From Escherichia phage LF82-41, in sequence record PV660463: a stretch of 64,000 nt of DNA; one strand, written 5' to 3'. The translations under genes and the position numbers were made by a program. Of the stretch, positions 10,379 to 52,527 are shown piece by piece (position 1 is the stretch's first letter; each line of letters starts with the position of its first letter). The notes under the pieces are model-generated. The model ran no database searches, was not told the DNA's origin, and worked only from the letters and a program-made list of their open reading frames with translations.

Positions 10379-10648
10379 TTATTTCTGTGCAATTTCGATG
10401 TAAGTTTTCAAAATATTTTGCCAATTAGGCATACCTTCTTGGACATATGCTGGAGAACCGTCTTTGTTTTTGAATGATGCAAGTTTATCAGTGGCCCAAT
10501 AACCTTTAGCTCGAGCTTCAGAATCAACTTTCATCCATACTTTGTTGAAGGCATTACCATTAACTTTTGCATCATATTTTTCTACTAACTTATCTGCTTC
10601 AGCTTCTAGAACTTTTAAAGTATCTCTTAAGAAACGTGCTTTAGTCAT
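10379..10648 (-). CDS. hypothetical protein, 89 aa, opposite strand between genes 23 and 24
   Basis: ORF-track ORF with ATG start, GGAG RBS and its own early-type promoter; no recognisable motifs. Confidence 0.55.
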   Translation of the reverse strand: MTKARFLRDTLKVLEAEADKLVEKYDAKVNGNAFNKVWMKVDSEARAKGYWATDKLASFKNKDGSPAYVQEGMPNWQNILKTYIEIAQK

Positions 10649-10678
10649 TTTGTTTACTCCTCTGTAGTTGATAAGTCT

Positions 10679-10708
10679 ATAGTATCACATACCAAATACG
10701 TTGTAAAC
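10679..10708 (-). promoter_or_regulatory. early (sigma70-type) promoter GTTTAC-N18-TACTAT, for ORF 10379-10648
   Basis: -35 GTTTAC (10703-10708), -10 TACTAT (10679-10684) preceded by TGA; member of repeated cassette. Confidence 0.55.
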
Positions 10709-10714
10709 AATCTT

Positions 10715-10722
10715 TATAAATA
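10715..10722 (+). promoter_or_regulatory. late promoter TATAAATA (gene 24)
   Basis: Exact TATAAATA 27 nt upstream of ATG. Confidence 0.7.
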
Positions 10723-10748
10723 ATCTATATCACATAAGGAAAAATGCA

Positions 10749-12032
10749 ATGAGTAAAATCCAAAAATTATTGCGTGAATCTACAACGTCTACTAGCAACT
10801 CAATCGGTCGCCCAAATCTCGTTGCTTTGACTCGCGCTACGACTAAATTAATATATTCTGACATTGTGGCAACACAAAGAACTAATCAACCTGTTGCTGC
10901 TTTTTATGGTATTAAATATCTTAACCCAGACAACGAATTAACATTTAAAACTGGTGCTACTTATGCAGGCGAAGCTGGATATGTAGACCGAGAAAAAATT
11001 ACCGAGCTCACAGAAGAATCAAAAGCCACACTAAATAAAGGTGATTTTTTCAAATATAATAATATAGTCTATAAAGTGTTAGAAGATACACCGTTTGCAG
11101 ATATTCAGGAAAGTGATCTAGAATTAGCTCTTCAGATTGCGGTCGTTCATTTAAAGGTACGGTTATTTTCAGATGCAGCGGTAACAAGCAAATTTGAAAG
11201 CTCTGGTAGCGAAATTTCTGATGCAAGATTCCAGATTAATAAATGGCAAACTTCAGTCAAATCTCGTAAACTTAAAACCGGTCTCACGGTTGAATTAGCG
11301 CAAGATTTAGAAGCGAATGGATTTGATGCCCCTAACTTCTTAGAAGATTTGCTTGCTACTGAAATGGCTGATGAAATTAATAAAGATATTCTTCAGTCTT
11401 TAATTACTGTATCGAAACGTTATAAAGTTACTGGAATTACTGACACTGGATTTATTGACTTGAGCTATGCGTCTGCTCCGGAAGCAGGTCGTTCGTTATA
11501 TCGAATGGTGTGTGAAATGGTATCACACATTCAAAAAGAGTCAACTTATACTGCAACGTTTTGCGTAGCTTCAGCTCGTGCAGCTGCTATTCTTGCTGCT
11601 TCGGGTTGGTTAAAACATAAGCCGGAAGATGATAAGTATCTTTCACAAAATGCTTATGGATTCTTGGCAAATGGATTACCTCTTTACTGCGATACCAACA
11701 GTCCGTTAGATTATGTTATTGTGGGTGTTGTAGAAAATATCGGCGAAAAAGAGATTGTAGGGTCCATCTTTTATGCTCCATACACTGAAGGAATGGATTT
11801 AGACGACCCGGAACATGTCGGTGCATTTAAAGTTGTAGTTGACCCAGAAAGCTTGCAACCGTCTATCGGTTTATTGGTTAGATATGCTTTATCAGCAAAT
11901 CCTTACACAGTAGCAAAAGATGAAAAAGAAGCGAGAGTAATTGATGGCGGGGACATGGATAAAATGGCAGGACGTTCGGACTTGTCTGTTTTACTCGGTG
12001 TTAAATTGCCTAAAATTATTATAGATGAATAA
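10749..12032 (+). CDS. 24: capsid vertex protein (gp24-like)
   Basis: 427 aa as in T4 gp24; late promoter upstream. Confidence 0.9.
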   Translation: MSKIQKLLRESTTSTSNSIGRPNLVALTRATTKLIYSDIVATQRTNQPVAAFYGIKYLNPDNELTFKTGATYAGEAGYVDREKITELTEESKATLNKGDFFKYNNIVYKVLEDTPFADIQESDLELALQIAVVHLKVRLFSDAAVTSKFESSGSEISDARFQINKWQTSVKSRKLKTGLTVELAQDLEANGFDAPNFLEDLLATEMADEINKDILQSLITVSKRYKVTGITDTGFIDLSYASAPEAGRSLYRMVCEMVSHIQKESTYTATFCVASARAAAILAASGWLKHKPEDDKYLSQNAYGFLANGLPLYCDTNSPLDYVIVGVVENIGEKEIVGSIFYAPYTEGMDLDDPEHVGAFKVVVDPESLQPSIGLLVRYALSANPYTVAKDEKEARVIDGGDMDKMAGRSDLSVLLGVKLPKIIIDE

Positions 12033-12040
12033 AAGAAAAA

Positions 12041-12056
12041 GGGACCGTAAGGTCCC
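12041..12056. terminator. rho-independent terminator, bidirectional (gene 24 / rnlB)
   Basis: GGGACC-GTAA-GGTCCC followed by TTTTTTTG, A-run on the other side. Confidence 0.75.
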
Positions 12057-12064
12057 TTTTTTTG

Positions 12065-13072: not shown

Positions 13073-13163
13073 AAATCACCATTATAAATAATAATATCAA
13101 AATAATTAGCAGAGACTCTATCTCCGACCCGATGTTTAATTTGAATGGATAGAACCTAGATTC

Positions 13164-13191
13164 ATTATACCATCAAAAAATGTAAAGCATA
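13164..13191 (-). promoter_or_regulatory. middle (MotA-dependent) promoter-like element upstream of rnlB
   Basis: MotA-box-like TATGCTTTA (13183-13191), 13-nt spacer, TATAAT (13164-13169). Confidence 0.4.
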
Positions 13192-13443: not shown

Positions 13444-13646
13444 TTCTTCACCTTTTTATTAATCAGACGTTTACGGTATACAACTTTTTCTTTTGCTTTA
13501 AACTTTGACCGAGCTGTCTCGGCTTTAGTCCATAGTAATCCAACTTCTTTAGGTTGTAAACCAATTTTTTGAGCAATTTCTACGAATGAAAATCCCGCCT
13601 CATGTAATGTATAAACTTCAACTTCAGCTCTCATAATCAATCCCAT
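13440..13646 (-). CDS. hypothetical protein (24.3 position)
   Basis: ORF-track ORF, 68 aa; 4-nt overlap with downstream ORF. Confidence 0.55.
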   Translation of the reverse strand: MGLIMRAEVEVYTLHEAGFSFVEIAQKIGLQPKEVGLLWTKAETARSKFKAKEKVVYRKRLINKKVKK

Positions 13647-13712
13647 ATTATTTGGTTTGTGCCATTATATACATCAATCTCAAGTTGTGTTTTGTGCTTT
13701 AAAAACGAAGAA

Positions 13713-13728
13713 AGGGGCCTAAGCCCCT
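13713..13728 (-). terminator. terminator after hoc
   Basis: AGGGGC-CTAA-GCCCCT hairpin, T-rich tract on minus strand. Confidence 0.6.
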
Positions 13729-13733
13729 TACGA

Positions 13734-14864: not shown

Positions 14865-14873
14865 AAGTTATCC

Positions 14874-15542: not shown

Positions 15543-15555
15543 AGTATTTCCTCAT

Positions 15556-15563: not shown

Positions 15564-15579
15564 TAACTATATTTATTAC

Positions 15580-16323
15580 ATGGAAAAGAGTATGTATCAC
15601 TTTGTTTATGAAACCGTAAATTTAATCAATGGTAAAAAGTACATTGGCAAACATTCTACAGAAAATTTAAATGATTCGTATCTAGGGTCAGGTGTTGCCT
15701 TAAATCGCGCTATCAAAAAATACGGAGAAGAATCATTTAAACGTTCAATAATTAAACAATTTGAAACTTCCGCTGAAGCTTTAGAATACGAAGCTCAGTT
15801 AGTAACAGAGGATTTGGTCAAATCTAACGAGTATTATAATATGCGCCAAGGCGGTGAAGGTGGAAGGTATAAGTACACCGAAGCTGATAAGACTAAAATG
15901 TCTAATAGTGCTAAAGAACGAATAAAGAGGCTTGGTCATAATCTTTTAGGAAAACACAGATCGGAAGAAACAAAAAGAAAACTATCTGAAACAAATAAAC
16001 GTCGATACTCTGAAGACCCAACATGCCACGGGCGGTATGGTACAGGAAAGCCAAAGATTGATAAAATTAAAGGTCCTAAAAATCCTACAACTCTAAATAA
16101 AATTTGTGTTAACAACGGTAAAGAAAACAGATTTATATCAGCCGAGGACCCGATGCCTGAAGGATTTGTAAAAGGAATGGTCCAACTTAATAGAAAATCT
16201 AGAAAGGGCTGTGAAGTAAAACCTACGACCACCGGCAGAATATGGGTAAATAACGGGGCTATAAATAAATTAGTAAATCCGTTATCCATCCCAGATGGAT
16301 ATGTTAAAGGCCGTTTAAGGTAA
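15580..16323 (+). CDS. segE: GIY-YIG homing endonuclease (SegE-like)
   Basis: N-terminal GIY-YIG motif (YHFVYETVN...GKKYIGKH); NUMOD3-like GKHRSEETKRKLSE; two C-terminal ~27-aa repeats; same position as T4 segE. Confidence 0.8.
   Translation: MEKSMYHFVYETVNLINGKKYIGKHSTENLNDSYLGSGVALNRAIKKYGEESFKRSIIKQFETSAEALEYEAQLVTEDLVKSNEYYNMRQGGEGGRYKYTEADKTKMSNSAKERIKRLGHNLLGKHRSEETKRKLSETNKRRYSEDPTCHGRYGTGKPKIDKIKGPKNPTTLNKICVNNGKENRFISAEDPMPEGFVKGMVQLNRKSRKGCEVKPTTTGRIWVNNGAINKLVNPLSIPDGYVKGRLR
16260..16267 (+). promoter_or_regulatory. late promoter TATAAATA (uvsW), inside 3' end of segE-like gene
   Basis: Exact TATAAATA ~62 nt upstream of uvsW ATG. Confidence 0.6.
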
Positions 16324-16328
16324 TTATT

Positions 16329-17843
16329 ATGACAGATATTAAAGTACATTTTCGCGATTTTAGCCATGTAAGAATTGAATGCGACGAAAGCGTGTTCTAT
16401 GAATTACGCGACTTTTTTAGCTTTGAAGCCGATGGGTACAAATTCAACCCGCGTTACAAATATGGGAACTGGGATGGTAGAATTCGACTTTTAGATTACA
16501 ATCGTTTGTTACCATATGGACTTGTAGGACAAATAAAAAAGTTCTGTAACAATATGAGTTATTCTGTATGGATTGACCCTAAAATCTTTGAGACTGAAGA
16601 CCTTACCAGGGAAGATTTTGACGCATGGCTTTCTAAACAAGAAATTTATTCAGGCAACACCAAAATCGAACCGCATTGGTATCAAAAAGATGCAGTATAT
16701 GAAGGACTAGTTAATCGTCGTCGAATTTTAAACCTTCCGACATCCGCAGGTAAATCACTAATCCAAGCACTTTTAGCTCGGTATTATTTAGAGAACTATG
16801 AAGGTAAAATTCTCATTATCGTCCCTACAACAGCATTGACAACCCAGATGGCTAATGATTTTGTTGATTATCGCTTGTTTAGTCATTCGATGATTAAGAA
16901 AATTGGCGGTGGTGCTGATAAAGCGGACAAATCTAAAAACGACGCTCCAATTATTGTTGGCACATGGCAAACGGTAGTTAAGCAGCCTAAAGAATGGTTC
17001 TCTCAGTTCGGTATGATGATGAATGATGAATGCCACTTAGCAACAGGCAAAAGTATTTCTTCAATCATCTCAGGATTAAATAATTGCATGTTTAAATTCG
17101 GTTTATCTGGCTCATTAAGAGACGGAAAAGCCAATGTAATGCAGTACGTAGGTATGTTCGGCGAAATCTTCCGTCCTGTTAGCACGTCTAAATTAATGGA
17201 AGACGGACAGGTAACTGAGCTTAAGATTAATAGTATTTTCCTTCGTTATCCAGACGAATTCACCACCAAATTAAAAGGTAAAACATACCAAGAAGAAGTT
17301 AAAATTATTACCGGACTAAAACGACGTACAAAGTGGATTGCTCAACTTTCAGTCAAATTGGCTAAGAAAGACGAGAACGCCTTTGTAATGTTTAAACACG
17401 TTACACACGGTAAAGAAATATTTGAAGCTATTAAAGAGCTTGGATACGAAAAAGTTTATTACGTATCAGGTGAAGTTGATACTGAAACACGTAACGCGCT
17501 TAAAGTCATGGCAGAAAATGGTAAAGGCATTATTATTGTCGCATCATATGGAGTATTCTCTACTGGTATTTCAGTCAAGAATCTTCATCATGTTATTTTT
17601 GCCCATGGTGTTAAATCAAAAATTATCGTACTTCAAACCGTAGGTCGTGTGCTTCGTAAGCACGGTTCTAAAGCTGTTGCTACAGTTTGGGATCTCATCG
17701 ATGACGCAGGTGTAAAACCTAAATCATTAAATACTAAAAAGAAGTATACTCATCTTAATTACTTGTTAAAACACGGTATTGATCGTATCCAGCGTTACGC
17801 TGATGAGAAATTTAACTATGTAATGAAAACAATTAATTTATAA
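16329..17843 (+). CDS. uvsW: UvsW helicase
   Basis: 504 aa; helicase motifs; T4 UvsW-like. Confidence 0.9.
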   Translation: MTDIKVHFRDFSHVRIECDESVFYELRDFFSFEADGYKFNPRYKYGNWDGRIRLLDYNRLLPYGLVGQIKKFCNNMSYSVWIDPKIFETEDLTREDFDAWLSKQEIYSGNTKIEPHWYQKDAVYEGLVNRRRILNLPTSAGKSLIQALLARYYLENYEGKILIIVPTTALTTQMANDFVDYRLFSHSMIKKIGGGADKADKSKNDAPIIVGTWQTVVKQPKEWFSQFGMMMNDECHLATGKSISSIISGLNNCMFKFGLSGSLRDGKANVMQYVGMFGEIFRPVSTSKLMEDGQVTELKINSIFLRYPDEFTTKLKGKTYQEEVKIITGLKRRTKWIAQLSVKLAKKDENAFVMFKHVTHGKEIFEAIKELGYEKVYYVSGEVDTETRNALKVMAENGKGIIIVASYGVFSTGISVKNLHHVIFAHGVKSKIIVLQTVGRVLRKHGSKAVATVWDLIDDAGVKPKSLNTKKKYTHLNYLLKHGIDRIQRYADEKFNYVMKTINL

Positions 17844-26440: not shown

Positions 26441-26734
26441 TTATTTACGGAATGAAAGGAATGCTGGTGCTCGGAACGGAGTATCATCTTTAGAGTATTT
26501 AACTAATACGACCATTGGTACCTCTGTTTCTAAATGACCTGTCAGTACACCGATAAAAATTTGATCAGTGTGTTCAGGGTCACGAAAGTTTTTAAGAGGT
26601 TCCATAGCAATATGGAATGCACCTGGGAATACTCGATTCAATTCGTCAATCACAGCTTCGTTAAAAACATCATCCGCTGGGATAGCATCTTCAACTACTA
26701 GTTCTTGACCATTAAAGCGAAGCATAGATTTCAT
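26441..26734 (-). CDS. hypothetical protein (alt.-1 position), 97 aa
   Basis: ATG at 26734 with GAGGAA RBS downstream of an early promoter; track start 26806 is TTG inside the promoter. Confidence 0.5.
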   Translation of the reverse strand: MKSMLRFNGQELVVEDAIPADDVFNEAVIDELNRVFPGAFHIAMEPLKNFRDPEHTDQIFIGVLTGHLETEVPMVVLVKYSKDDTPFRAPAFLSFRK

Positions 26735-26763
26735 AACGTTTTCCTCATGTTGTTGATGGGATG

Positions 26764-26793
26764 ATAGTATCACACATCCATGTGCTTGTAAAC
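26764..26793 (-). promoter_or_regulatory. early promoter GTTTAC-N18-TACTAT between alt and alt.-1
   Basis: Same architecture and conserved leader as other cassette copies. Confidence 0.55.
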
Positions 26794-32380: not shown

Positions 32381-32567
32381 GTTTCAACCCTTTAATAGGA
32401 GATAACTCTTTACCCATACGTATGTCAGAAGTCCAATCAACCCATTGAACAGCATACGCTTCATTGATAATTCCAGCGGCGGTTTTAAATTCAGGGAGAA
32501 CTTTAAAAATCACCCCAGGAATTCCAACACCTTTTAATTGGACTGTTTGTGCTATTAAAAATTTCAT
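32370..32567 (-). CDS. hypothetical protein
   Basis: ORF-track ORF 65 aa; ATG at 32567; promoter-like element upstream. Confidence 0.5.
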   Translation of the reverse strand: MKFLIAQTVQLKGVGIPGVIFKVLPEFKTAAGIINEAYAVQWVDWTSDIRMGKELSPIKGLKHVE

Positions 32568-32591
32568 ATTTTTCCACTTACTAAAGAAATC

Positions 32592-32622
32592 ATTATACTC
32601 TAATCCGTCCTTGGATGTAAAC
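32592..32622 (-). promoter_or_regulatory. early-promoter-like GTTTAC-N19-TATAAT
   Basis: Perfect hexamers but 19-nt spacer; upstream of ORF 32370-32567. Confidence 0.35.
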
Positions 32623-33272: not shown

Positions 33273-33638
33273 TTAGATATCAAATTCGTTAAGAACTACA
33301 TCAAAGATTGCTTCGAGATGTTCAGGTTTAGCTCGGTTACTCAGGATATGACGAATCCAAGTTTTAACCAGAAGTTTACGATTAACACCATTCCAGCAAG
33401 GATGAGTACCTAAATCACGCTGACGGAAATCATCATCTAATGCAATTTTAAAATTTGAACCTTCCATCGTGATTGAAACCGTGATGCCATTTTCAAATCG
33501 CATATAAACGTAATTAGGAGTCATGCACTGTTCGATTTCACATACTGAACCATTTTTATGTTTCCATAAGCAAATAACTTCAGAAGAACCAGCGATACCG
33601 TTAGAAACATATTTGCGTTCGAAGTTGATGTAGTTCAT
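33273..33638 (-). CDS. hypothetical protein (30.7 position)
   Basis: ORF-track ORF 121 aa; ATG start. Confidence 0.6.
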   Translation of the reverse strand: MNYINFERKYVSNGIAGSSEVICLWKHKNGSVCEIEQCMTPNYVYMRFENGITVSITMEGSNFKIALDDDFRQRDLGTHPCWNGVNRKLLVKTWIRHILSNRAKPEHLEAIFDVVLNEFDI

Positions 33639-33668
33639 TTTATTCTCCAGATGTTTAAGTTGTTTATT

Positions 33669-33699
33669 GGTACAGGTCTATAATAACATAACCTGTACC
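33669..33699. repeat. perfect 9-bp inverted repeat with 13-nt loop
   Basis: GGTACAGGT...ACCTGTACC; loop holds the -10 hexamer of an early promoter. Confidence 0.8.
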
Positions 33700-33708
33700 A
33701 AAGTAAAC
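33680..33708 (-). promoter_or_regulatory. early promoter GTTTAC-N17-TATTAT
   Basis: -10 lies in the loop of a perfect 9-bp inverted repeat (33669-33699). Confidence 0.5.
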
Positions 33709-33712
33709 TGTT

Positions 33713-34081
33713 TTATGCAACTTTAATCCAATTGTCTAAATTTAAAACACCTTTGGCTTTCATTTTTTCGATCAGGTTATCTGCTGTAATGCGTCCATTT
33801 TGATACCATGTAACATCTTCAGAGTAACCAGTTTCTTCGTCAACATATGTTTCTGAACGAATTTTACCGGTAATAATAGTTTTTAATTCGTACGTGTCAC
33901 CTGTGAAAAAGTTTGCTAACACAATTTTCCAAGAGAAATCATCAGAAGGACCTTCAGGGGTCATACAACCTACGAACTCAAATTGCTCTTTGTATAACAT
34001 CCACTGGAATTCTTTAATTTCGATAGCTTTATAACCGTCGTGGTCTTTACATTTGATGTATGAGTTCAGATTGATTTTCAT
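33713..34081 (-). CDS. hypothetical protein (30.8 position)
   Basis: ORF-track ORF 122 aa; early promoter and CGGAGA RBS upstream. Confidence 0.6.
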   Translation of the reverse strand: MKINLNSYIKCKDHDGYKAIEIKEFQWMLYKEQFEFVGCMTPEGPSDDFSWKIVLANFFTGDTYELKTIITGKIRSETYVDEETGYSEDVTWYQNGRITADNLIEKMKAKGVLNLDNWIKVA

Positions 34082-34122
34082 TTTATTCTCCGGTTGTTTT
34101 ATTGATTAGGTGGTACAAGTCT

Positions 34123-34151
34123 ATAGTAACACATCCTACAGGAGAGTAAAC
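34123..34151 (-). promoter_or_regulatory. early promoter GTTTAC-N17-TACTAT
   Basis: Cassette copy upstream of ORF 33713-34081. Confidence 0.55.
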
Positions 34152-34188
34152 ATCTTTTTTAAACTTTTTCTGCCCTAAACGCACAAAA

Positions 34189-34206
34189 GGGAGACCGAAG
34201 TCTCCC
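34189..34206 (-). terminator. rho-independent terminator after small basic ORF
   Basis: Minus-strand GGGAGAC-UUCG-GUCUCCC followed by UUUUG. Confidence 0.65.
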
Positions 34207-35615: not shown

Positions 35616-36197
35616 TTATTCACCACAAAAGTTTCGGATTTGTTCCCAATTCAGAGAACGAAGATTATTACGAGAGTACTGAATTACTTCAATACCAGCT
35701 TGTTTAAGAATGTCTGCCCAGTTTTCAGGAGATCGGTCATATAATTCTGCATATACAACCTTTTTAATACCTGACTGCGTAATAGCTTTAGTACAATCAG
35801 GACATGGAGAAAGCGTCGTATATAACGTAGCACCTTCAATAGAATTACCTTTACGAGCGGCAAACAAAATTGCATTCAATTCTGCATGGATTTCATTATT
35901 AGCAGACCATGCACTATGAGCAGCTCGATGTTCTTTGGCTAAAACAAAATTATCTACCCGTCCAAATGCTGTAGTGCCTTCTTTATGTCCAGCAACGATG
36001 ACTGGGATTGGTTTATTCTTCAACCAACCATTTTCAGATGCATGTTCGCAACAGTTAACGCCACCTGCAGGTGAACCGTTATATCCAGTAGAAATAATGC
36101 GTCCATCTTTTTCAATGACGGCACCAACTTTCCATGAACAACATTTTGATTCTTGAGAAATCAGATATGCAATCTGAAGGTATGTGCTAGCTTTCAT
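35616..36197 (-). CDS. cd: dCMP deaminase
   Basis: 193 aa; zinc-binding HAE and PCxxC motifs; T4 Cd-like. Confidence 0.9.
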   Translation of the reverse strand: MKASTYLQIAYLISQESKCCSWKVGAVIEKDGRIISTGYNGSPAGGVNCCEHASENGWLKNKPIPVIVAGHKEGTTAFGRVDNFVLAKEHRAAHSAWSANNEIHAELNAILFAARKGNSIEGATLYTTLSPCPDCTKAITQSGIKKVVYAELYDRSPENWADILKQAGIEVIQYSRNNLRSLNWEQIRNFCGE

Positions 36198-37189
36198 TAT
36201 TGAACCTTATTAATATAAGTTAACAGCTCTTTAGTTTGTTCCCAACTGATGCACGCATCGGTAACGGAAACGCCATAGGACATATTATCAGAAATTTTTT
36301 GATTTCCTTCATGTAGGAACGATTCTATCATAATTCCTTTGACCAAATCATTAGCTGCTAAATTTTTACCAATACCAATTTGATTGCTATAATGCCCATC
36401 AGCGTTTGCATGGCTACAGTCAACCATTACATAATGATTCAGACCTACTGCCCTTGCTTTGTTAGAAGCTTCTTGAATATCAGAAGAATGATAGTTCGGG
36501 CCGTTGGTCCCGCCACGCAATACGATATGCGTATTCTGATTACCTTCAGCTTCAACAATGCCTACAGTACCATCGACGTCCATACCCATATACCGATGAG
36601 GCCAGGCGGCACTATACATCGCGTCTGTAGCTACTTTAATAGAACCATTGGTTGCGTTCTTGAAGCCTACGCACATCGGTAGACCTGAAGCAATTTCACG
36701 ATGTGTCTGACTTTCAGTCGTACGGGCGCCAATAGCAACCCATGAGAAAATACCAGAAAGATACTTAATCGTGAATGGGTCTAATACTTCAGTTGCTAAT
36801 GGAAGTCCCATACGTAGAAGTTTACGACACAATGTTCGTGCAACTATAAGACCGTGGTTCATATCAAAACTTCCGTCAAGATATGGATCATTTACAAGAC
36901 CTTTCCAACCTACGGTAGTTCGAGGCTTTTCAAAATAAACGCGCATCACTAACAGAACATTAGGAAGACGAGTTTGAAGTTCAGCCAGACGTTTGCCGTA
37001 TTCAACAGCAGCAATAGGGTCATGAATTGAACAAGGACCTACAACAATAAGTTTGCGTGGGTCTTCACCGTTCATAATCGAATTAACTTGTTCGCGATGA
37101 GAAGCCACTTGTGATGCGTAAGCTTCCGACAAAGGAATAATCTCAGCCAGTTCTTTTGGAGAAATAAGTTTTCCGACGACAGGTAACAT
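36197..37189 (-). CDS. 3-deoxy-D-arabino-heptulosonate-7-phosphate (DAHP) synthase, type I (AroG/F/H-like)
   Basis: 330 aa; motifs GPCSIHD, MRVYFEKPRTTVGWKGL, IGARTTESQ, ILRGG, CSHANA, IESFLHEGNQ, TDACI; stop overlaps cd start; AAGGA RBS. Confidence 0.9.
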   Translation of the reverse strand: MLPVVGKLISPKELAEIIPLSEAYASQVASHREQVNSIMNGEDPRKLIVVGPCSIHDPIAAVEYGKRLAELQTRLPNVLLVMRVYFEKPRTTVGWKGLVNDPYLDGSFDMNHGLIVARTLCRKLLRMGLPLATEVLDPFTIKYLSGIFSWVAIGARTTESQTHREIASGLPMCVGFKNATNGSIKVATDAMYSAAWPHRYMGMDVDGTVGIVEAEGNQNTHIVLRGGTNGPNYHSSDIQEASNKARAVGLNHYVMVDCSHANADGHYSNQIGIGKNLAANDLVKGIMIESFLHEGNQKISDNMSYGVSVTDACISWEQTKELLTYINKVQ

Positions 37190-37309: not shown

Positions 37310-37546
37310 TTATAGTGTTCCATATACTCGAGTTGCTTCAACAAGACCATCACTGCCTAATTTAAGGCTAGTAATCTGGTCACCATCTTTAGGATTAACG
37401 ATTATGAGAAAAGAACGTGGAGATTCTTGAATAACTCGTAATGTTGCATCCTGGAAACGTTCAGACACTTTATTGATGAGTGCTTGAGCAAATTCTTTTA
37501 CTTTAATCTGAAATTCGTGTACTGTAATTGGGGTTTCACTTAGCAT
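37310..37546 (-). CDS. hypothetical protein, 78 aa
   Basis: ORF-track ORF; ATG with GAGG RBS downstream of early promoter cassette. Confidence 0.55.
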   Translation of the reverse strand: MLSETPITVHEFQIKVKEFAQALINKVSERFQDATLRVIQESPRSFLIIVNPKDGDQITSLKLGSDGLVEATRVYGTL

Positions 37547-37575
37547 TTCGATTTCCTCATTGTGTTGGTAGAGTT

Positions 37576-37605
37576 ATAGTATCACAACTCCACCATGTTG
37601 TAAAC
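37576..37605 (-). promoter_or_regulatory. early promoter GTTTAC-N18-TACTAT
   Basis: Cassette copy upstream of ORF 37310-37546. Confidence 0.55.
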
Positions 37606-39374: not shown

Positions 39375-39673
39375 TATTTTATTCCTAAGAAAATTTCAAG
39401 AATACGAATGTTATGCTCGCGCCGGTCTTTATTAATTTCAGCAACGTTTTTATTAATTGACGTACTTCTAACGTTTGAAGAAATAAATTTAATCATATGA
39501 CTTTTGAGTTGTTGCAAATCCATCCCTTTTTCTTTAGCAGCTTTACGAAGAGCTTTACCTGCTTCATCTAGTGCCTTTGCTGCATCTTTGTCATAATTGC
39601 CAAGTGACATTCCACGACAGATATCAATATACTCATCAGACCGTTTGATGTAATTCTCTAGTAATGTTTTCAT
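39374..39673 (-). CDS. hypothetical protein, 99 aa
   Basis: ORF-track ORF; ATG with GAGG RBS and early promoter upstream. Confidence 0.55.
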
Positions 39674-39701
39674 TTAGATTTCCTCAATTATCCATAGGAG
39701 C

Positions 39702-39731
39702 ATTATAATCTGCTCCTGAGAGTTTGTAAAC
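39702..39731 (-). promoter_or_regulatory. early promoter GTTTAC-N18-TATAAT
   Basis: -10 overlaps loop of a 6-bp inverted repeat (39697-39716); upstream of ORF 39374-39673. Confidence 0.5.
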
Positions 39732-40236: not shown

Positions 40237-40589
40237 TCTGAGAGCTTCCTGAGGTCTTCTGCAAAGGAATCGAAGGACCTGTTGATTTGTTTTTCGACCA
40301 ATCCTGGCTTACTTGCCACCACGTTCTTCTTCTTCGAATCCTTACGGAGCTTTTCATTTTCGGCCTTAAGTTGGTCAACTAAAACACGGTTCTTATAAGT
40401 CATTTCTTCGATTGACTGATATTGAACTTTGAAGTCGTCTAATACTTTAGCATTGTTTTTAGCAGCCTCTTTAACAGAAGCTAATTCAGTATTCAACGAA
40501 TCAACTTTGTTGTTTAAGACAACTATTGTTACCGTAGAAACTAGAGCAAAAGCTGCTACTATAACATAAATCGGATTTACTTTAAGCAT
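40233..40589 (-). CDS. inner-membrane spanin (i-spanin; T4 pseT.3 equivalent)
   Basis: 118 aa; N-terminal TM helix then coiled-coil-like region; paired with lipoprotein ORF. Confidence 0.7.
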   Translation of the reverse strand: MLKVNPIYVIVAAFALVSTVTIVVLNNKVDSLNTELASVKEAAKNNAKVLDDFKVQYQSIEEMTYKNRVLVDQLKAENEKLRKDSKKKNVVASKPGLVEKQINRSFDSFAEDLRKLSE

Positions 40590-41077
40590 GTTTGAATAAT
40601 CTCAATGATTTCGTCTCGGGATAATCCATTGATAAGAACTGTTTTAGGCCCATCAGTTTGGATTTTGTAGGTCTCAAACATTACACACAACTCTTCTGCT
40701 GTATGATATGGACTTGAAATTCCGAGACGGTTGAATTTGTCGGTAAGAGGGTCGCAAATGATGTAGAATTTTATACCTGCGATATGTACATTTGGTTGAC
40801 TAATATTAATGAACACATTAGCGTCATATTTAGTTAAATTGTTTTGAAGAAATTCTACCATAGCATTAACTGCTTCTGGCATCGCTTCGCGTTTCTCTTC
40901 AGCGTATCGGGTTGAATACTCTTTTTGCTTTAACTTCTTTTTAGCATTTTTCGCTAGAGTAGTACGAAGGTCCGTAAGATAACCAACTGGACGGCCTTTC
41001 TTAAAGACCCGGATTCCATCTGTAGAATCACCAAATGCTGCCACAACCATATCGTTAGTAATCAATTGCATATTCAT
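40577..41077 (-). CDS. alc: Alc-like protein (inhibitor of host transcription)
   Basis: ATG at 41077 with GAGGAG RBS gives ~166 aa (T4 Alc 167 aa); position between spanins and rnlA; track ORF starts 21 codons earlier. Confidence 0.65.
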   Translation of the reverse strand: MNMQLITNDMVVAAFGDSTDGIRVFKKGRPVGYLTDLRTTLAKNAKKKLKQKEYSTRYAEEKREAMPEAVNAMVEFLQNNLTKYDANVFINISQPNVHIAGIKFYIICDPLTDKFNRLGISSPYHTAEELCVMFETYKIQTDGPKTVLINGLSRDEIIEIIQTCLK

Positions 41078-41107
41078 AATTTTCTCCTCGTGTTGTTGAT
41101 AAAACCC

Positions 41108-41137
41108 ATAGTAACACCATCCTTGGTGTTTGTAAAC
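41108..41137 (-). promoter_or_regulatory. early promoter GTTTAC-N18-TACTAT upstream of alc
   Basis: Cassette copy followed by GAGGAG RBS and alc ATG. Confidence 0.55.
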
Positions 41138-41139
41138 CA

Positions 41140-42273
<1,134 letters not shown>

Positions 42274-42319
42274 TCAGTTAGTTTTTTTAAATTATACCAC
42301 AATCCTTGTGGTGTGTAAA

Positions 42320-42730
42320 CTACTTTTTCTTATGTTGGATATTCCAAGGCGGGTTGAACTTTTTGATAAAAAGCGGTTCTTCAAGGTCCATTGTTGCGAT
42401 GGTCATTGAACCAAGTTCGTTGGTGACTGAAAGGTCAAAACATTGGCGGGCCCAGAATTCAACCTTTTTGCCTTGCATTAAGGCATCCAAAATCATAAGT
42501 GATTTTCTTGAATCTGAAGTCTGGTCTTTTCGATTTATGGCTGTTCGATAATAGTTAATGCGTTTCTTTAAATTCTTGGTTTTACCAATATACACAAGTT
42601 CGTCATCTATAGCAATAGCGTATATGACATTTTTCTTATTAGGGACATCAACTGTTTTAATTGTTGCATCTTCTAATAGCTCCAATTCTGTATATTTAAT
42701 AAAGGAATATTCGGCGGCAATATCTTTCAT
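42320..42730 (-). CDS. denA: endonuclease II (GIY-YIG family)
   Basis: 136 aa; IYAIAIDDELVYIGKT motif; matches T4 EndoII length and termini. Confidence 0.85.
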   Translation of the reverse strand: MKDIAAEYSFIKYTELELLEDATIKTVDVPNKKNVIYAIAIDDELVYIGKTKNLKKRINYYRTAINRKDQTSDSRKSLMILDALMQGKKVEFWARQCFDLSVTNELGSMTIATMDLEEPLFIKKFNPPWNIQHKKK

Positions 42731-48032: not shown

Positions 48033-48270
48033 CTTTAAGCCCTTTAATAACTTTTTGGATTTGTGATTTTGATGAAACTAAATCACACTGGATTTGGCAA
48101 CCATCGGCAGGGTCAAATGTTGTAACGCAAACACGTGCTGGCATGGTGTATTCGTCAGACAAATCGAATGCATCAGCAATATATTTGGCTAAATCCGGGT
48201 GGTCTAAATTGACCGAAGTATAAACTTCATATCCGTCATCACCCTTGGAGTATTCAACAACAATAATCAT
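48025..48270 (-). CDS. hypothetical protein, 81 aa
   Basis: ORF-track ORF overlapping frd start. Confidence 0.55.
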   Translation of the reverse strand: MIIVVEYSKGDDGYEVYTSVNLDHPDLAKYIADAFDLSDEYTMPARVCVTTFDPADGCQIQCDLVSSKSQIQKVIKGLKDA

Positions 48271-48272
48271 TT

Positions 48273-48464
48273 TTATTTCCTCAGATATTTTTTGACCATA
48301 TAGTATTGGAATTCAAACATTCTTGAATCAATAACAAAAATTTGTTTTCTTGGGCATTCATTTAATCGTACAGCTGAACACCCAAACGCAAGTTCATGAT
48401 ATTGTTTCTTTTCTATTTCTGAAAGGAAAGTTCTAAGATAACGGAAAAATAGACAGTTAATCAT
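48273..48464 (-). CDS. hypothetical protein, 63 aa
   Basis: ORF-track ORF. Confidence 0.5.
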   Translation of the reverse strand: MINCLFFRYLRTFLSEIEKKQYHELAFGCSAVRLNECPRKQIFVIDSRMFEFQYYMVKKYLRK

Positions 48465-48466
48465 AA

Positions 48467-48715
48467 TTATTTCCTCAGATTTTTCTTAACAACTTTCCAA
48501 TCGGCTTTAAACGATTCAACATCAGAATGGTGAATCCAGAATCCTGCGCTTTCACCATCTTCGTAGAGTGGACATCCATCACATTCTTCATTCCATCCCA
48601 TTTCACGTAAAGCTTCTTCAGCTTGTTCAAGGAGTTCAGCATCTTTACCAACAACGTTGAAGTACCATTTACCTCTAACTTCAGAATCTTTGATGCTCTG
48701 TCGTTGCAATCTCAT
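48467..48715 (-). CDS. hypothetical protein, 82 aa
   Basis: ATG at 48715 with AAGGAG RBS; longer track ORF would run through a 10-bp stem hairpin. Confidence 0.55.
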   Translation of the reverse strand: MRLQRQSIKDSEVRGKWYFNVVGKDAELLEQAEEALREMGWNEECDGCPLYEDGESAGFWIHHSDVESFKADWKVVKKNLRK

Positions 48716-48738
48716 TTTATTCTCCTTCACTTTTGATT

Positions 48739-48766
48739 TGATAGGGCTACTATAACATAGCCCTAT
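48739..48766. repeat. perfect 10-bp inverted repeat with 8-nt loop
   Basis: GATAGGGCTA-ctataaca-TAGCCCTATC in intergenic region; loop resembles an extended -10. Confidence 0.8.
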
Positions 48767-48777
48767 CTGATTGTACA

Positions 48778-49164
48778 CTACTTTTTAAAAGTTTTTTGCA
48801 AAAGTTTGATGATTTCGTCGACGTTGGTTTCATCTACAATACAATGGATTTTTGTTACACCTAAAGTTATACCTTCGTTAGTAGATTGTGGCTTTTCTAA
48901 AGTTACCTCAGTAAAGTATTTGAATTCTTCAGAGTAAATCTCAAAATACGTCTCAAGTGGGCCACCAGCCATGTATTCAGTGCCGTCTTCCATAGTTACA
49001 CGTACCACACAGTCACCAGCACAATCATCACTTTCCATTTCATCTACAACAAAACTAGGTCCGTGCTTCTCTATTAAATTTAGCATCATTACATTGCAAC
49101 GGCACTCGTTAGCAAAGTCATCTTTAAATAAAGGGTTAATGATATAAGATTTTCCGATTTCCAT
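48778..49164 (-). CDS. hypothetical protein, 128 aa
   Basis: ORF-track ORF; ATG with GAGG RBS downstream of early promoter cassette. Confidence 0.6.
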   Translation of the reverse strand: MEIGKSYIINPLFKDDFANECRCNVMMLNLIEKHGPSFVVDEMESDDCAGDCVVRVTMEDGTEYMAGGPLETYFEIYSEEFKYFTEVTLEKPQSTNEGITLGVTKIHCIVDETNVDEIIKLLQKTFKK

Positions 49165-49193
49165 TTTGATTTCCTCATGTTGTTGATAAGTCT

Positions 49194-49222
49194 ATACTAA
49201 CACATCCAGGGAAGAAGTAAAC
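49194..49222 (-). promoter_or_regulatory. early promoter GTTTAC-N17-TAGTAT
   Basis: Cassette copy between gene 32 and ORF 48778-49164. Confidence 0.55.
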
Positions 49223-49253
49223 AACTTTTTCAGCAATTTACAGATACTCAAAA

Positions 49254-49271
49254 GGGAGACCGAAGTCTCCC
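49254..49271 (-). terminator. rho-independent terminator after gene 32
   Basis: Minus-strand GGGAGAC-UUCG-GUCUCCC followed by UUUUGAG. Confidence 0.65.
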
Positions 49272-49277
49272 AATTTA

Positions 49278-50177: not shown

Positions 50178-50250
50178 TATATTTACCTTTATTTAGATTA
50201 TTTAAATTATTTACAGTTGGTTACTACGACACTTATACCTCGTAGCTGGT
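50178..50250 (-). promoter_or_regulatory. gene 32 5' leader: stem-loop plus AU-rich repeats (putative gp32 translational operator)
   Basis: 6-bp stem CUACGA/UCGUAG (50224-50245), then repeated UAAAUAAU-type tracts before the ATG. Confidence 0.5.
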
Positions 50251-50256
50251 ATGATT

Positions 50257-50264
50257 TATTTATA
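50257..50264 (-). promoter_or_regulatory. late promoter TATAAATA on minus strand (gene 32)
   Basis: Forward tatttata ~80 nt upstream of gene 32 ATG. Confidence 0.6.
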
Positions 50265-50293
50265 AAGTAATTTTAACACACAAGAAATAAAGC

Positions 50294-50947
50294 TTAATAC
50301 TTACATGATTTGATTGTTTCTATGAACAATTTCTTAGCAGCATTTCCATCGATTTGAAGTATTTTTCGATATGCCTTTAATTTGGTAGAATAATTTTGCC
50401 AGACTAAATTGTCGGTGAGTTCGTCGTGCTTATCTATAATATTCAAGAATGAATCCAACAACAAGAAGGTTTCAAATGAAATTATATTGCTTTGTAGCAA
50501 TTTAAATATGTAGCTCGACTGAACTTTATTATTATAATCAAATATCTCTTGAAGCGCACTAACTTCCACTTTCTTACTGAAATAGTAGATGTTACGTACA
50601 TCTTCAGCAAACGTCTCCTTGGCTTGTTTGAGTCGTCCAATATATTCCCTATAGAAAACTAATGCATCAGCGTCTGATATCTCACCAATCCATGCGTCTT
50701 GGTTAGCAACTAAGTTGCTTATGAATATCAAGGTGAGTTCCTTCAATTTATATTTCTCTGCTAGTTTTTCAAAGAAATATTTATCTCGGCGTTTTTGATA
50801 CGCATTATCCGAAACACGCATGCACCAGTTATATTTGATTACGTCATACCGACCACCAAAATGGTTTTTGCACATCAAGTATAGTTTGTATACCGATTTT
50901 CCATTAATATAACGTTCTCCATCAGGAGGCATACGTATTTTAATCAT
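50294..50947 (-). CDS. 59: helicase loader gp59
   Basis: 217 aa as in T4 gp59. Confidence 0.9.
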   Translation of the reverse strand: MIKIRMPPDGERYINGKSVYKLYLMCKNHFGGRYDVIKYNWCMRVSDNAYQKRRDKYFFEKLAEKYKLKELTLIFISNLVANQDAWIGEISDADALVFYREYIGRLKQAKETFAEDVRNIYYFSKKVEVSALQEIFDYNNKVQSSYIFKLLQSNIISFETFLLLDSFLNIIDKHDELTDNLVWQNYSTKLKAYRKILQIDGNAAKKLFIETIKSCKY

Positions 50948-51282
50948 AATAAGAAATCTAACGTATTAGTTTTTTCACCACGAGCAACTGATGGGCGAAG
51001 CATGTTTTCGTCAATTGCTTCGCTTGTAATTTTTTCAACAATTCCTGTAGGAATAAATTTAGCAAATTGTGTTTCTGGAATAGAATTTTCTTCTAAGAAA
51101 GCAGTTGTTGCTTCTAAATAAGACATACCAAATTGTTCAACCATAGATTCGATAATGAATCCGTTTTCTTGCCGGTCAAGCAATTTAGCGATATCATCTT
51201 TATCATGTTTTACTGCTAATTCTTGTTCAGATAAACCGGCCTCATCAACCGGTTTAATATCACTTAGTGAAAACTGTGTCAT
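50944..51282 (-). CDS. 33: late transcription co-activator gp33
   Basis: 112 aa as in T4 gp33. Confidence 0.9.
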   Translation of the reverse strand: MTQFSLSDIKPVDEAGLSEQELAVKHDKDDIAKLLDRQENGFIIESMVEQFGMSYLEATTAFLEENSIPETQFAKFIPTGIVEKITSEAIDENMLRPSVARGEKTNTLDFLL

Positions 51283-51529
51283 AAAGCTCGACTACCTCTT
51301 CGTTTTCAGCTTCAAATTGATCACGAGCGTCTTTATGATAAAGAGCTAACAAACGATTAAACATTTTTCCATCGACACCAAGCTCTTCTTTAGCACGAGT
51401 ACGAATGTCTTTAATCAGTTCATTATAACCAGAAATTTTAAGTTTGTTATCGGAAGCTTCCTTGACTAGTTTAGCCAGTTCTTCACCATGCACATCTTGA
51501 TTAAATTCAACTGCTTCTTTCTTAGCCAT
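51260..51529 (-). CDS. dsbA: double-stranded DNA-binding protein DsbA
   Basis: ATG at 51529 with GAGG RBS gives 89 aa MAKKEAVEF... as in T4 DsbA; track ORF is 6 codons longer. Confidence 0.85.
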   Translation of the reverse strand: MAKKEAVEFNQDVHGEELAKLVKEASDNKLKISGYNELIKDIRTRAKEELGVDGKMFNRLLALYHKDARDQFEAENEEVVELYDTVFTK

Positions 51530-51536
51530 GTTTACC

Positions 51537-52454
51537 TCAGAATTCATTAATTACACTTGTTAATTTAGAAAGACCAGATTTTACAAAGTATGAATAAATC
51601 TTGCCTTTAGGTTGTTGTTTATACGAGTTATAATACTCTATAATGGTTGAAGCAATATTATCAGGGATATAATCAAAATCAATGAGAACCAAATTTTCTT
51701 GATACCGTTTATATTCTTCTGCACTTAATAATACTTCAGCTTGAGAACGGTCATTGGCAATTGCTTCAATAATCGTCGTTTTCATGCTCGGAGTTCGTTC
51801 ACCATCAACTCGAGTAAACCAGAAGTCACCACGAACTCGAACAGATGCAACGCCATCTTTACGGTCACCTTTAAGAATTTTAGTCATGCAATCAATTTCA
51901 GCAGAACCGTTCTTAATTTTAACCCATTTTTTCTGTGGTGGCGACCACTGTTTAACGTTAGGGTATTTGTGTAATTGTGTAAAGTCACCGTCTGATGCAA
52001 CAATACATACCTTATGACCGGCTAATGACAAATATTTAGTTAATACACCGATATGGTCATCCGCTTCATACTTATCAATATCCATTACAACGTATGGCAT
52101 GTATTTCTTAATCTCATCAACAACTTGGCGGAGTGCAGTAAAATATCCTTCCCAATCCCACTTTGAAGCTTCACGATCGGTTTTACGATTTTTCTTGTAA
52201 TAGTAAGCAAAATCACGTCGCCAATAACCTGAAGTAGCATTATCCATACACAATACAAATTTTGTATAGCCTTGCTTACGGAACATCACTACGTTTTTAC
52301 GAATTGAATTCAAGATTACATGACGAACCATCGGAACAGTAATTTTATCGCCGTCTTCAAAGTTGTTTAATGCAGCTGCCAATGCAATGTTACTAAAGTC
52401 GGCAAGTGCAATACCTTCTTTGTAATCTTCATCCAACATCATTTCTAAATCCAT
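51537..52454 (-). CDS. rnh: RNase H (5'-3' exonuclease)
   Basis: 305 aa as in T4 RNase H; early promoter and AAGAGG RBS upstream. Confidence 0.9.
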   Translation of the reverse strand: MDLEMMLDEDYKEGIALADFSNIALAAALNNFEDGDKITVPMVRHVILNSIRKNVVMFRKQGYTKFVLCMDNATSGYWRRDFAYYYKKNRKTDREASKWDWEGYFTALRQVVDEIKKYMPYVVMDIDKYEADDHIGVLTKYLSLAGHKVCIVASDGDFTQLHKYPNVKQWSPPQKKWVKIKNGSAEIDCMTKILKGDRKDGVASVRVRGDFWFTRVDGERTPSMKTTIIEAIANDRSQAEVLLSAEEYKRYQENLVLIDFDYIPDNIASTIIEYYNSYKQQPKGKIYSYFVKSGLSKLTSVINEF

Positions 52455-52486
52455 ATGAACCTCTTGTTCAGTTAGTCAACTTGTCT

Positions 52487-52516
52487 ATAGTAACACACTC
52501 ATTTGAAAGCGTAAAC
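52487..52516 (-). promoter_or_regulatory. early promoter GTTTAC-N18-TACTAT upstream of rnh
   Basis: Cassette copy; back-to-back with gene 34 late promoter. Confidence 0.55.
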
Positions 52517-52519
52517 TGG

Positions 52520-52527
52520 TATAAATA
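52520..52527 (+). promoter_or_regulatory. late promoter TATAAATA (gene 34)
   Basis: Exact TATAAATA 31 nt upstream of gene 34 ATG. Confidence 0.7.

Follow-up and report, generated by a model that had tools for sequence, protein, structure and literature searches.

Dispersed modules on the minus strand of Escherichia phage LF82-41 as probable T4-type early promoters joined to leaders and ribosome-binding sites

The window and its genes

The DNA analysed here is a stretch of 64,000 nucleotides (nt) from Escherichia phage LF82-41 (sequence record PV660463), hereafter the window. Dispersed along its minus strand are short modules in which a GTTTAC-type -35 hexamer and a -10 hexamer are followed by a leader, a Shine-Dalgarno sequence and a start codon. 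An earlier note on this DNA had listed ten of them as one family of near-identical early promoter cassettes. Our analysis makes it highly probable that they represent T4-type early promoters from an RB69-like phage, fused in every case to the leader and ribosome-binding site that belong to the first gene under their control.

The T4-type genomes LH01, p000y and NBG1, which belong to the RB69-like genus Mosigvirus, are 96–98% identical to the window, and judging from its sequence the window phage is itself an RB69-like (Mosigvirus) T4-type phage. More than 140 Mosigvirus genomes span at least 80% of a 10-kb or 25-kb test segment taken from the window. Gene names were carried over from the annotation of LH01, RB69 and T4. 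The gene order is T4-like: genes 20 to 23, 24, rnlB, hoc, inh, uvsW, uvsY, 25–29, 48, 54, alt, 30, 30.x, rIII and 31 are followed by cd, pseT, alc, rnlA, denA, nrdB, nrdA, td, frd, 32, 59, 33, dsbA, rnh, 34–37, t and asiA. The minus strand carries the early and middle genes. An Rfam search over the window returned zero family matches.

Early promoter motif

The pattern GTTTAC-N16–19-TAnnAT occurs 13 times in the window, always on the minus strand, versus 1.28 ± 1.05 matches expected by chance (100 dinucleotide shuffles, none of which reached 13). A weight matrix of two blocks, for which 31 Mosigvirus promoters served as training set, found 14 cassettes, again all on the minus strand, compared with 0–1 in shuffled sequence. 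Throughout the LH01 genome, 37 of the 38 motif matches lie on one and the same strand, which is that of the early genes. A generic sigma70 consensus scan was uninformative (68 sites versus 62.2 expected), and only the T4-type pattern discriminates. The ten loci of the earlier note were all recovered on the minus strand at the coordinates given there, but its list was incomplete: four more cassettes, named here like all others by the start coordinate of their -35 hexamer (13561, 42320, 48778 and 63102), had been overlooked.

An ATG with a preceding Shine-Dalgarno sequence lies 26–41 nt downstream of each motif match, with 13561 as the sole exception. Likewise, 13 of the 14 cassettes are intergenic and combine the promoter with an AT-rich tract on its upstream side and a Shine-Dalgarno sequence with ATG on its downstream side. 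The -10 hexamer had been described as consistently TACTAT-like. Among the 13 pattern matches, eight have TACTAT and the others have TATAAT (three times), TATTAT and TAGTAT (once each); cassette 48778, which was found by the weight matrix only, has TATAGT. A TACTAT-like -10 is the published norm, because the consensus TTTACW-N17-TAYWAT of the T4/PST cassettes (Comeau et al., 2014) covers it. Most cassettes have the TG of an extended -10. In a set of 32 Mosigvirus promoters, comprising those of the window and of the rest of the LH01 genome, T-15 is found in 26 and G-14 in 27, and an A-rich UP-like element is apparent from the A present in 19–22 of the 32 promoters at positions -43 to -39.

The early promoters of RB69 have already been predicted with a 51-nt model (Nolan et al., 2006, Virol J 3:30), which gave 57 early promoters in the text and 58 in the list; 13 of these sites precede novel open reading frames (ORFs) and 45 precede T4 orthologues. 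Of the listed sites, 14 fall in the range from 109 to 160 kb, and their spacing mirrors that in the window. Comparison with the extracted RB69 sequences showed direct orthology for 12 of the 14 window cassettes. Cassette 63102 matches a listed site by spacing only, and is probably the thirteenth cassette already predicted in RB69. Cassette 32622 is unlisted and, conversely, the weak RB69 site Pe:136969 has no counterpart in our catalogue. The T4 record contains an early promoter (Pe133295) at the cd.2/cd.3 junction that is orthologous to cassette 37605; all other T4 promoters in our comparisons are pattern matches made in this analysis.

The window cassettes thus resemble T4-type early promoters in their GTTTAC -35, 17–18 nt spacer, TGn, TAnnAT -10, A-rich UP-like tract and C at -3 to -1, which is also the preference reported for RB69 (Nolan et al., 2006), as well as in lying on the early strand, where they precede early genes and small ORFs. 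They differ in that the window phage is a separate isolate, about 96–98% identical to its nearest records, and in that the published RB69 model ends at about +4, so that leader and Shine-Dalgarno sequence are not part of it. Both the excess of motif matches and the orthology with the listed RB69 sites support the reading of the earlier note that these are early promoters with a leader and ribosome-binding site.

Catalogue of the cassettes

All 14 cassettes lie on the minus strand, and fold z scores refer to comparison with shuffled sequences. Cassette 10708 (10646–10708; weight-matrix score 41.3; fold z = -1.39) is located upstream of an ORF of 89 amino acids (aa; 10379–10648) between genes 23 and 24, and is orthologous to Pe:109605 of RB69. 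Its -35 GTTTAC pairs with a GTAAAC directly 3′ of the Shine-Dalgarno sequence. Together with its ORF and a bidirectional terminator at 10351–10373, this unit resembles a moron, i.e., a unit of promoter, ORF and terminator between conserved phage genes: it lies antisense between the late genes 23 and 24, and its ORF has no match in the T4 locus searched. However, only cassette 10708 fits this description, as the other cassettes head conserved early operons.

A strong early-promoter match at 13532–13561 is situated inside the 24.3 ORF, 89 nt upstream of the start of 24.2, and is followed by the hairpin CCGAGacagCTCGG (match and hairpin region 13485–13561; fold z = -1.96). It has an orthologue in RB69 (Pe:112451) but not in T4, and might serve 24.2 as an internal promoter or give rise to a short RNA. 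Upstream of the alt.-3 orthologue, cassette 26793 (26732–26793) carries the exact leader ATCAACAACATGAGGA and has orthologues in RB69 (Pe:125323), T4, CF1 and TU02. The weaker cassette 32622 (32565–32622; weight-matrix score 22.8), with a 19-nt spacer and a TATAAT -10, precedes a 30.5-like ORF; it is not among the listed RB69 sites, and T4 lacks a promoter at this position.

Cassettes 33708 (33636–33708; RB69 Pe:131670) and 34151 (34079–34151; RB69 Pe:132117) precede 30.7 and 30.8, respectively. In the former, a stem GGTACAGG/CCTGTACC encloses the -10 (minimum free energy -20.9 kcal/mol, z = -3.97, reached by 0 of 200 shuffles); the same stem is found in T4, and different stems in TU02 and CF1. 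In the latter, pairing is possible between the spacer TCTCCTGT and ACCGGAGA, a segment that contains the Shine-Dalgarno sequence, and the predicted unpaired probability of the Shine-Dalgarno sequence drops from 0.61 to 0.17 in read-through RNA, although the fold z is only -0.46. Cassette 37605 (37544–37605; RB69 Pe:134561), upstream of cd.2, has a stem GGTGGAGTT/AACTCTACC that encloses the -10 (z = -3.31, 0 of 200 shuffles); its counterpart in T4, the recognised early promoter Pe133295, has the stem GGTAGAGTT/AGCTCTACC. Cassette 39731 (39671–39731; RB69 Pe:136687) lies upstream of a 99-aa ORF without T4 homologue, and its TATAAT -10 is flanked by a stem AGGAGC/GCTCCT (z = -1.54).

Cassette 41137 (41075–41137; RB69 Pe:138093), upstream of alc, contains a palindrome within its spacer (ACACCAaggaTGGTGT) and the exact leader ATCAACAACACGAGGA. 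A spacer palindrome (CCACAaggaTTGTGG) is also present in cassette 42320 (42262–42320; RB69 Pe:139277), upstream of rnlA. At this promoter (42291–42320), T4 has a MotA-box-like ATGCTTC in place of GTTTAC, at equal distance from a conserved -10, and the palindrome CCACA..TGTGG is kept between the window and T4 as well. From these sequences, it looks like an early and a middle promoter have been swapped upstream of rnlA between the window and T4.

Cassette 48778 (48713–48778; RB69 Pe:145300; weight-matrix score 32.6), upstream of frd.1, is a variant with GTGTAC and TATAGT hexamers, in which a stem GATAGGGCT/AGCCCTATC encloses the -10 (z = -4.88). Cassette 49222 (49162–49222; weight-matrix score 44.0) carries the full consensus of the earlier note, AGACTTATCAACAACATGAGGA. 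The ORF that follows this promoter downstream of gene 32 differs between phages: it is frd.3 in T4 and ORF245c in RB69 (after Pe:146013), while a frd.2-like ORF follows directly in the window and LH01. Upstream of rnh, cassette 52516 (52452–52516; RB69 Pe:149309) shows no significant fold (z = 0.02), whereas its T4 orthologue has a stem AGATTT/AAATCT. Finally, cassette 63102 (63036–63102; weight-matrix score 35.8; RB69 Pe:160217 by spacing only) precedes asiA, outside the range covered by the earlier note.

Terminators and neighbouring genes

Two cassettes lie ~26–32 nt downstream of the same intrinsic terminator GGGAGACTTCGGTCTCCCTTTTG. The terminator of gene 32 (49249–49271, minus strand) ends up ~26 nt upstream of the -35 of cassette 49222, forming a terminator-promoter composite, and an identical copy (GGGAGAC-TTCG-GTCTCCC-TTTTG; 34184–34206, minus strand) precedes the -35 in the cassette of 30.8 by ~30 nt. 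This hairpin with a UUCG tetraloop (GGGAGAC-TTCG-GTCTCCC) occurs four times in the window, at 10351–10373 and 57575–57597 on the plus strand and at the two minus-strand positions just given, with a chance expectation of zero; the four terminators follow genes 23, 35, 30.9 and 32.

In the annotation of LH01, the longest alc ORF (187 aa; 40577–41140, minus strand) starts upstream of the alc promoter. With a start at 41077, which has a Shine-Dalgarno sequence before it, the product would be 166 aa long, in agreement with the ZQ3 annotation, and the T4 alc coding sequence is 504 nt (~167 aa). The LH01-style gene call for alc is probably too long. Between cd.2 and cd, a 330-aa ORF (36197–37189, minus strand) is annotated in relatives as phospho-2-dehydro-3-deoxyheptonate aldolase; it has no match in the T4 locus searched, and in RB69 no gene is annotated between cd.2 and cd. 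Internal repeats of 44–48 nt in gene 34 (53836–54833, plus strand) and tandem 27-nt units in gene 37 (61152–61418, plus strand) reflect repeated motifs in the tail-fibre proteins and have no connection with the cassettes.

Similarity of the cassettes

How alike the cassettes are was determined by pairwise comparison of 72 columns anchored on the -35, the -10 and the ATG. The copies had been called near-identical, but mean identity is only 37 of the 72 columns (~51%), and the best window pair (33708/34151) agrees in 52. A repeat finder independently recovered the cassettes as dispersed repeats of 45–91 nt with 69–76% identity. The sharing of the leader was overstated as well: in its 22-nt form (AGACTTATCAACAACAYGAGGA), it occurs only twice at ≤3 mismatches. 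Its 16-nt core ATCAACAACAYGAGGA is exact in the cassettes of alt.-3 (26742), alc (41085) and frd.2 (49172) and has indel variants at cassettes 10708 and 37605.

The 32 Mosigvirus promoters share a class consensus that consists of an A-tract at -43 to -39, GTTTAC, GG at -20/-19, TGTG at -17 to -14, TAyTAT and then AGACCTATCAAC (-6 to +6), plus a GAGGA ribosome-binding site. The AGACCTATCAAC segment contributes 0.4–1.0 bit per position; C-3 is found in 23, T-1 in 24, A+1 in 25, T+2 in 23 and C+3 in 20 of the 32 promoters. Hence, the earlier note was right that conservation runs past the promoter and that more than the hexamers is shared, with a consensus that reaches to about +6. As far as these sequences tell, this conservation is a property of the whole promoter class and not of a seven-member family. 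It agrees with the review of Hinton, according to which the T4 early promoter consensus extends beyond the UP, -35, TGn and -10 elements. A column-shuffle null, which keeps only the consensus, accounts for all but a few cassette pairs.

Near-identical cassettes do occur in T4, where the leaders of imm.1, nrdC.10, e.8 and motA (promoters 27080, 55384, 70696 and 163673) have TACTATACAACTATCAACTACTGATAC..GGAGAAT.AAATG in common. The T4 promoters of nrdC.10 and frd.3 (55384 and 146875) show identity over 39 nt.

Vertical inheritance and cassette exchange

Regions that precede orthologous genes were compared with those in T4 (Tequatrovirus), CF1 (Moonvirus), TU02 (Jiaodavirus) and ZQ3. A promoter is present at the same place in other genera for alt.-3, 30.7, 30.8, alc and rnh, and partly for cd.2 and rnlA, with spacers and leaders that differ lineage by lineage. 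The sequences suggest that inheritance of the cassettes is mainly vertical, each with its gene, because 12 of the 14 are sequence orthologues of RB69 sites and most have positional orthologues in T4, CF1 or TU02. The earlier note had also stated that cassette junctions tend to border ORFs without T4 counterparts. This tendency is not found in the window: ORFs without T4 homologue make up 2 of 13 promoter-proximal ORFs and 6 of 42 other minus-strand ORFs (Fisher p = 1.0).

Local exchange between cassettes is apparent in several places. The T4 cassettes of alc and alt.-3 are identical at 53 of 54 positions, from GTTTAC through GAGGA, with different flanks. In CF1, the neighbouring 30.7 and 30.8 cassettes are closer to each other than to their orthologues, and have been homogenised within the genome. 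In TU02, the same two cassettes have a 26-nt identical stretch, with an overall identity no higher than to their orthologues. The products of 30.7 and 30.8 gave no cross-hits with each other; therefore, gene duplication does not explain the similarity of their cassettes.

In comparison with LH01 or ZQ3, the window differs by five indels. One is a segE-like homing-endonuclease ORF present in the window (15586–16329, plus strand). This 247-aa ORF (15580–16329, plus strand), located between inh and uvsW, is missing in both LH01 and ZQ3, with alignment breaks at 15586 and 16329, and is probably a mobile seg-type endonuclease gene, since T4 has the homing endonuclease segE at this position. A second indel is an endonuclease insertion in the nrdA gene of ZQ3, and a third lies in the 30.9–rIII spacer. 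The fourth concerns the ORF at 48273–48464 (minus strand), which is absent from ZQ3 and is bounded by two 33-nt direct repeats (48264–48296 and 48458–48490; 85% identical). These repeats (AAAAATCTGAGGAAATAAnnATGATT) represent a translation-initiation region without promoter. Promoter-less repeats of a ribosome-binding region can mark ORF indels too, because the ZQ3 alignment breaks at these repeats (48296 and 48461).

The fifth indel is the only one of the five at cassette junctions, and it falls in the gene 32–frd segment. Here, LH01 has the ORF lh_250, a paralogue of the frd.2-like gene, between two cassettes, where the window has the single cassette 48713–48778, a chimera of the two. The junction lies within CCTaTCAAAaCAAATGA, the conserved +1 segment of both flanking cassettes. 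In the mini-circles of phage RB49, crossovers were similarly mapped between the -10 and the ATG. The change of ORF behind the promoter downstream of gene 32 among T4, RB69, LH01 and the window also counts among the exchange events. At the level of sequence, occasional cassette exchange is real, and the argument for mobility is supported only locally.

Spacer-leader complementarity and hairpins

Sequence downstream of the -10 frequently matches the reverse complement of the spacer that separates -35 and -10. We compared the duplex energy of each spacer with its own leader to that with the leaders of other promoters, a control that keeps the class consensus, in 20000 random re-pairings. In the window, native pairing amounts to -9.7 versus -7.1 kcal/mol, and 24 of the 20000 re-pairings were as good as the native mean. 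The corresponding number is 2 for LH01 outside the window, 17 for CF1 and 625 for TU02. The 32 promoters of the entire T4 genome gave -12.1 versus -7.7 kcal/mol, and none of the re-pairings was as good. Promoter spacers are thus specifically complementary to their own leader or ribosome-binding site in four genera, which is a modest new addition, seen mainly outside the window.

Two hairpin geometries can be distinguished. In one, the 3′ arm is at -6 to +4 and the stem encloses the -10, as in cassettes 33708, 37605 and 48778; such stems are kept in T4, or have other stems in their place in TU02 and CF1. These three are also the only window cassettes with z ≤ -3.3 in the fold test. Cassettes 13561, 39731 and 10708 are marginal, and eight of the 14 fold no better than shuffles. 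Therefore, hairpins are not a general property of the cassettes in the window.

In the other geometry, the 3′ arm covers the Shine-Dalgarno sequence. Its predicted unpaired probability falls from 0.5–0.9 in RNA from the own promoter to 0.00–0.09 in read-through RNA at 6 of 32 Mosigvirus promoters, all six outside the window, and at 6 of 32 T4 promoters, which include those of regB, alc, denV and nrdC.8. The expected counts are 1.7 (Mosigvirus) and 2.1 (T4) with a shuffled 5′ part, and 3.6 and 2.4 with the 5′ part of another promoter. In the window, strong occlusion (unpaired probability ≤0.10) was found in none of 13 cassettes; it is partial at 34151 and at 49222 (0.61 to 0.29). Occlusion as a property of the entire class was rejected (native versus shuffled 5′ parts, Wilcoxon p = 0.76), and applies to a subset only.

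The alc promoter was also compared across 21 viral contigs and the reference phages. It has at least seven leader versions, each with a matching spacer, for instance in the stems ATCCTCATTTTGTTG/CAACAAAATGAGGAT and TCTCCATTTGGTT/AACCAAATGGAGA, and 12 of the 15 tabulated stem positions show two or three types of Watson-Crick pair. This hairpin covers the Shine-Dalgarno sequence in other genera, but it is absent from the window and the RB69 lineage, where the window alc promoter has its intraspacer palindrome instead. RNAalifold predicted no pairs on a MAFFT alignment of the alc promoters, in which indels put the arms out of register. A scripted pair count separated native (12.9 pairs) from cross-group combinations (8.9 pairs) only weakly, because the part that pairs with the Shine-Dalgarno sequence is common to every promoter. 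A search of viral contigs for relatives of cd.2, aimed at covariation in the 37605 hairpin, yielded just two near-identical loci.

Comparison with known cassettes and hairpins

Promoter-early stem-loop (PeSL) cassettes have been described from RB49/phi1 (Arbiol et al., 2010) and from PST/T4 and nt-1/KVP40 (Comeau et al., 2014). They are defined by an AT-rich stretch, a sigma70-like early promoter, a stem-loop and a Shine-Dalgarno sequence with start codon. The likeness to PeSLs suggested in the earlier note is apt. The window cassettes share the AT-rich tract, the early promoter and the Shine-Dalgarno sequence with ATG; stems, where present, are found in the interval from -35 to -10, over the -10 itself, or upstream as terminators. 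The terminator-promoter form of the T4/PST PeSLs is found here at 34151 and 49222. The lh_250 indel, with its crossover between -10 and ATG, resembles the RB49 mini-circles. In contrast, clearly significant stems are present in only 3 of the 14 window cassettes (three others are marginal and two have upstream terminators), and the cassettes are not enriched beside lineage-specific ORFs. Moreover, the PeSLs of RB49 have G-tract/C-tract stems, while the window stems are of another type.

Hairpins that sequester a ribosome-binding site and contain an internal promoter are known from T4 e, soc, 49, I-TevI and segB and from mobE of Aeh1. They have the promoter in their 5′ strand and the Shine-Dalgarno sequence in their 3′ strand, so that only transcripts from the internal promoter have a free ribosome-binding site. 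The same geometry is predicted in T4 for regB, alc and denV, at their early promoters, and for several promoters of LH01, CF1 and TU02. However, the reviewed examples are described as late genes without exception, whereas here the internal promoter is an early one and would limit expression to early times. In the window, this feature is weak or absent.

Weighing the explanations

The most probable explanation is that unmodified host RNA polymerase with sigma70 would recognise the A-rich UP-like tract, the GTTTAC -35, the TGn at -15/-14 and the TAyTAT -10, by analogy with T4. Transcription would most likely start at the A of the conserved CCT-ATCAAC, as in T4, and yield a putative leader of ~20–35 nt that is CA-rich and G-poor and ends in GAGGA or GGAG 5–8 nt before the ATG. 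The likeness of the copies would stem mainly from the extended class consensus (about -45 to +6) and the common Shine-Dalgarno sequence, and also from the vertical inheritance of each cassette with its gene. Occasionally, homologous recombination between conserved segments may homogenise two cassettes, or delete or insert the ORF between them, as in the published PeSL model. A subset of cassettes would lie within a hairpin whose 5′ arm is the promoter spacer, with a function that we can only infer. In the window, the 3′ arm of this predicted hairpin is usually at -6 to +4, enclosing the -10; elsewhere in these genomes, it often lies over the Shine-Dalgarno sequence, in which case read-through RNA would be structured differently from RNA of the own promoter. 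Several points weigh against this explanation. Start sites and early timing are extrapolated from T4 and RB69, 13561 lies inside a coding region with no adjacent start codon, and 32622 is weak and absent from the RB69 list. The majority of the window cassettes fold no better than shuffles or only marginally so. The consensus at +1 to +6 could come from homogenisation rather than function, and sense and antisense pairing are equally stable (-11.66 versus -11.36 kcal/mol), which gives no sign of action at the RNA rather than the DNA level.

The earlier note had argued for duplicated or mobile cassettes rather than convergence. In its strong form, as PeSLs that are primarily mobile or duplicated regulatory elements, whose likeness reflects recent copying and which are the main drivers of ORF gain and loss here, we consider this unlikely. 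Some pairs are indeed more alike than the consensus predicts: the LH01 pairs 164495/164174 (64/72) and 8930/51115 (56/72) exceed the column-shuffle null, and the window pair 33708/34151 exceeds the null's mean maximum of 48.4, although not its largest value of 55. The exchanges in T4, CF1 and TU02, the T4 leader families of ~40 nt, the position of lh_250 between two cassettes and the published RB49 mini-circles point the same way. Yet most pairs fit the consensus-only null, the cassettes have their orthologues in RB69 and largely also in T4, CF1 or TU02, with lineage-specific spacers, and ORFs without T4 homologue show no excess beside them. Furthermore, two of the five indels are homing-endonuclease insertions and one is at promoter-less repeats. 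What stands of the claim is local exchange. Alternatively, the spacer hairpins might be translational gates: read-through RNA would be blocked at the Shine-Dalgarno sequence, RNA from the own promoter, which lacks the 5′ arm, would be translated, and such genes would be made only while the early promoters fire. The excess of strongly occluded promoters over shuffled controls, the matched spacers and leaders of alc, and the same logic established for the late promoters of T4 e, soc, 49 and I-TevI favour this possibility, which we nevertheless find doubtful. Its enrichment is modest when another promoter's 5′ part serves as control, strong occlusion does not occur in the window cassettes, the three window hairpins with a significant fold have the -10 inside the stem and a Shine-Dalgarno sequence that is less occluded than in controls, and the pairing lacks asymmetry between the strands. 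It is also improbable that the stem-loops have no translational role and act instead as attenuators or terminators of upstream transcription, as proposed by the PeSL authors, or as recombination signals in the DNA. A PeSL stem-loop of RB49 was as effective as the rrnB T1 terminator in lowering lacZ expression, canonical intrinsic terminators immediately precede cassettes 34151 and 49222, and strand-symmetric pairing is compatible with a role in DNA. However, the stems around the -10 lack the U-run that follows the stem of an intrinsic terminator, they are AT-richer than the GGGG/CCCC stems of RB49, and no recombinase or binding protein is known for them.

Implications

The cassette class is ordinary and already known, with RB69-type promoters predicted in 2006 and the PeSL class and the recombination idea published in 2010–2014, and nothing fundamental is added to phage biology by its presence here. 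For annotation, the sequence points to 14 early transcription units in the window, and at least one gene call that is probably over-long (alc) is corrected. The part worth pursuing is the complementarity between spacer and leader, which is specific, shows covariation at the alc promoter of other genera and is testable in T4. Tentatively, T4-type early promoters of at least four genera may often be built into a hairpin whose spacer complements the leader or the Shine-Dalgarno sequence, and which would gate translation if it acts at the RNA level. In that case, translation of genes such as regB, alc and denV would be confined to transcripts of their own early promoters, and these genes would remain silent on long read-through transcripts of the delayed-early or middle type. 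This would be an 'early-only' equivalent of the gating described for the late genes e, soc, 49 and I-TevI. The lineage of the window would then be a natural loss-of-hairpin variant at alc, with its leader replaced by that of the alt.-3/frd.2 cassette type. Such gating would explain why some products of T4-like phages are confined to the first minutes of infection despite continued read-through.

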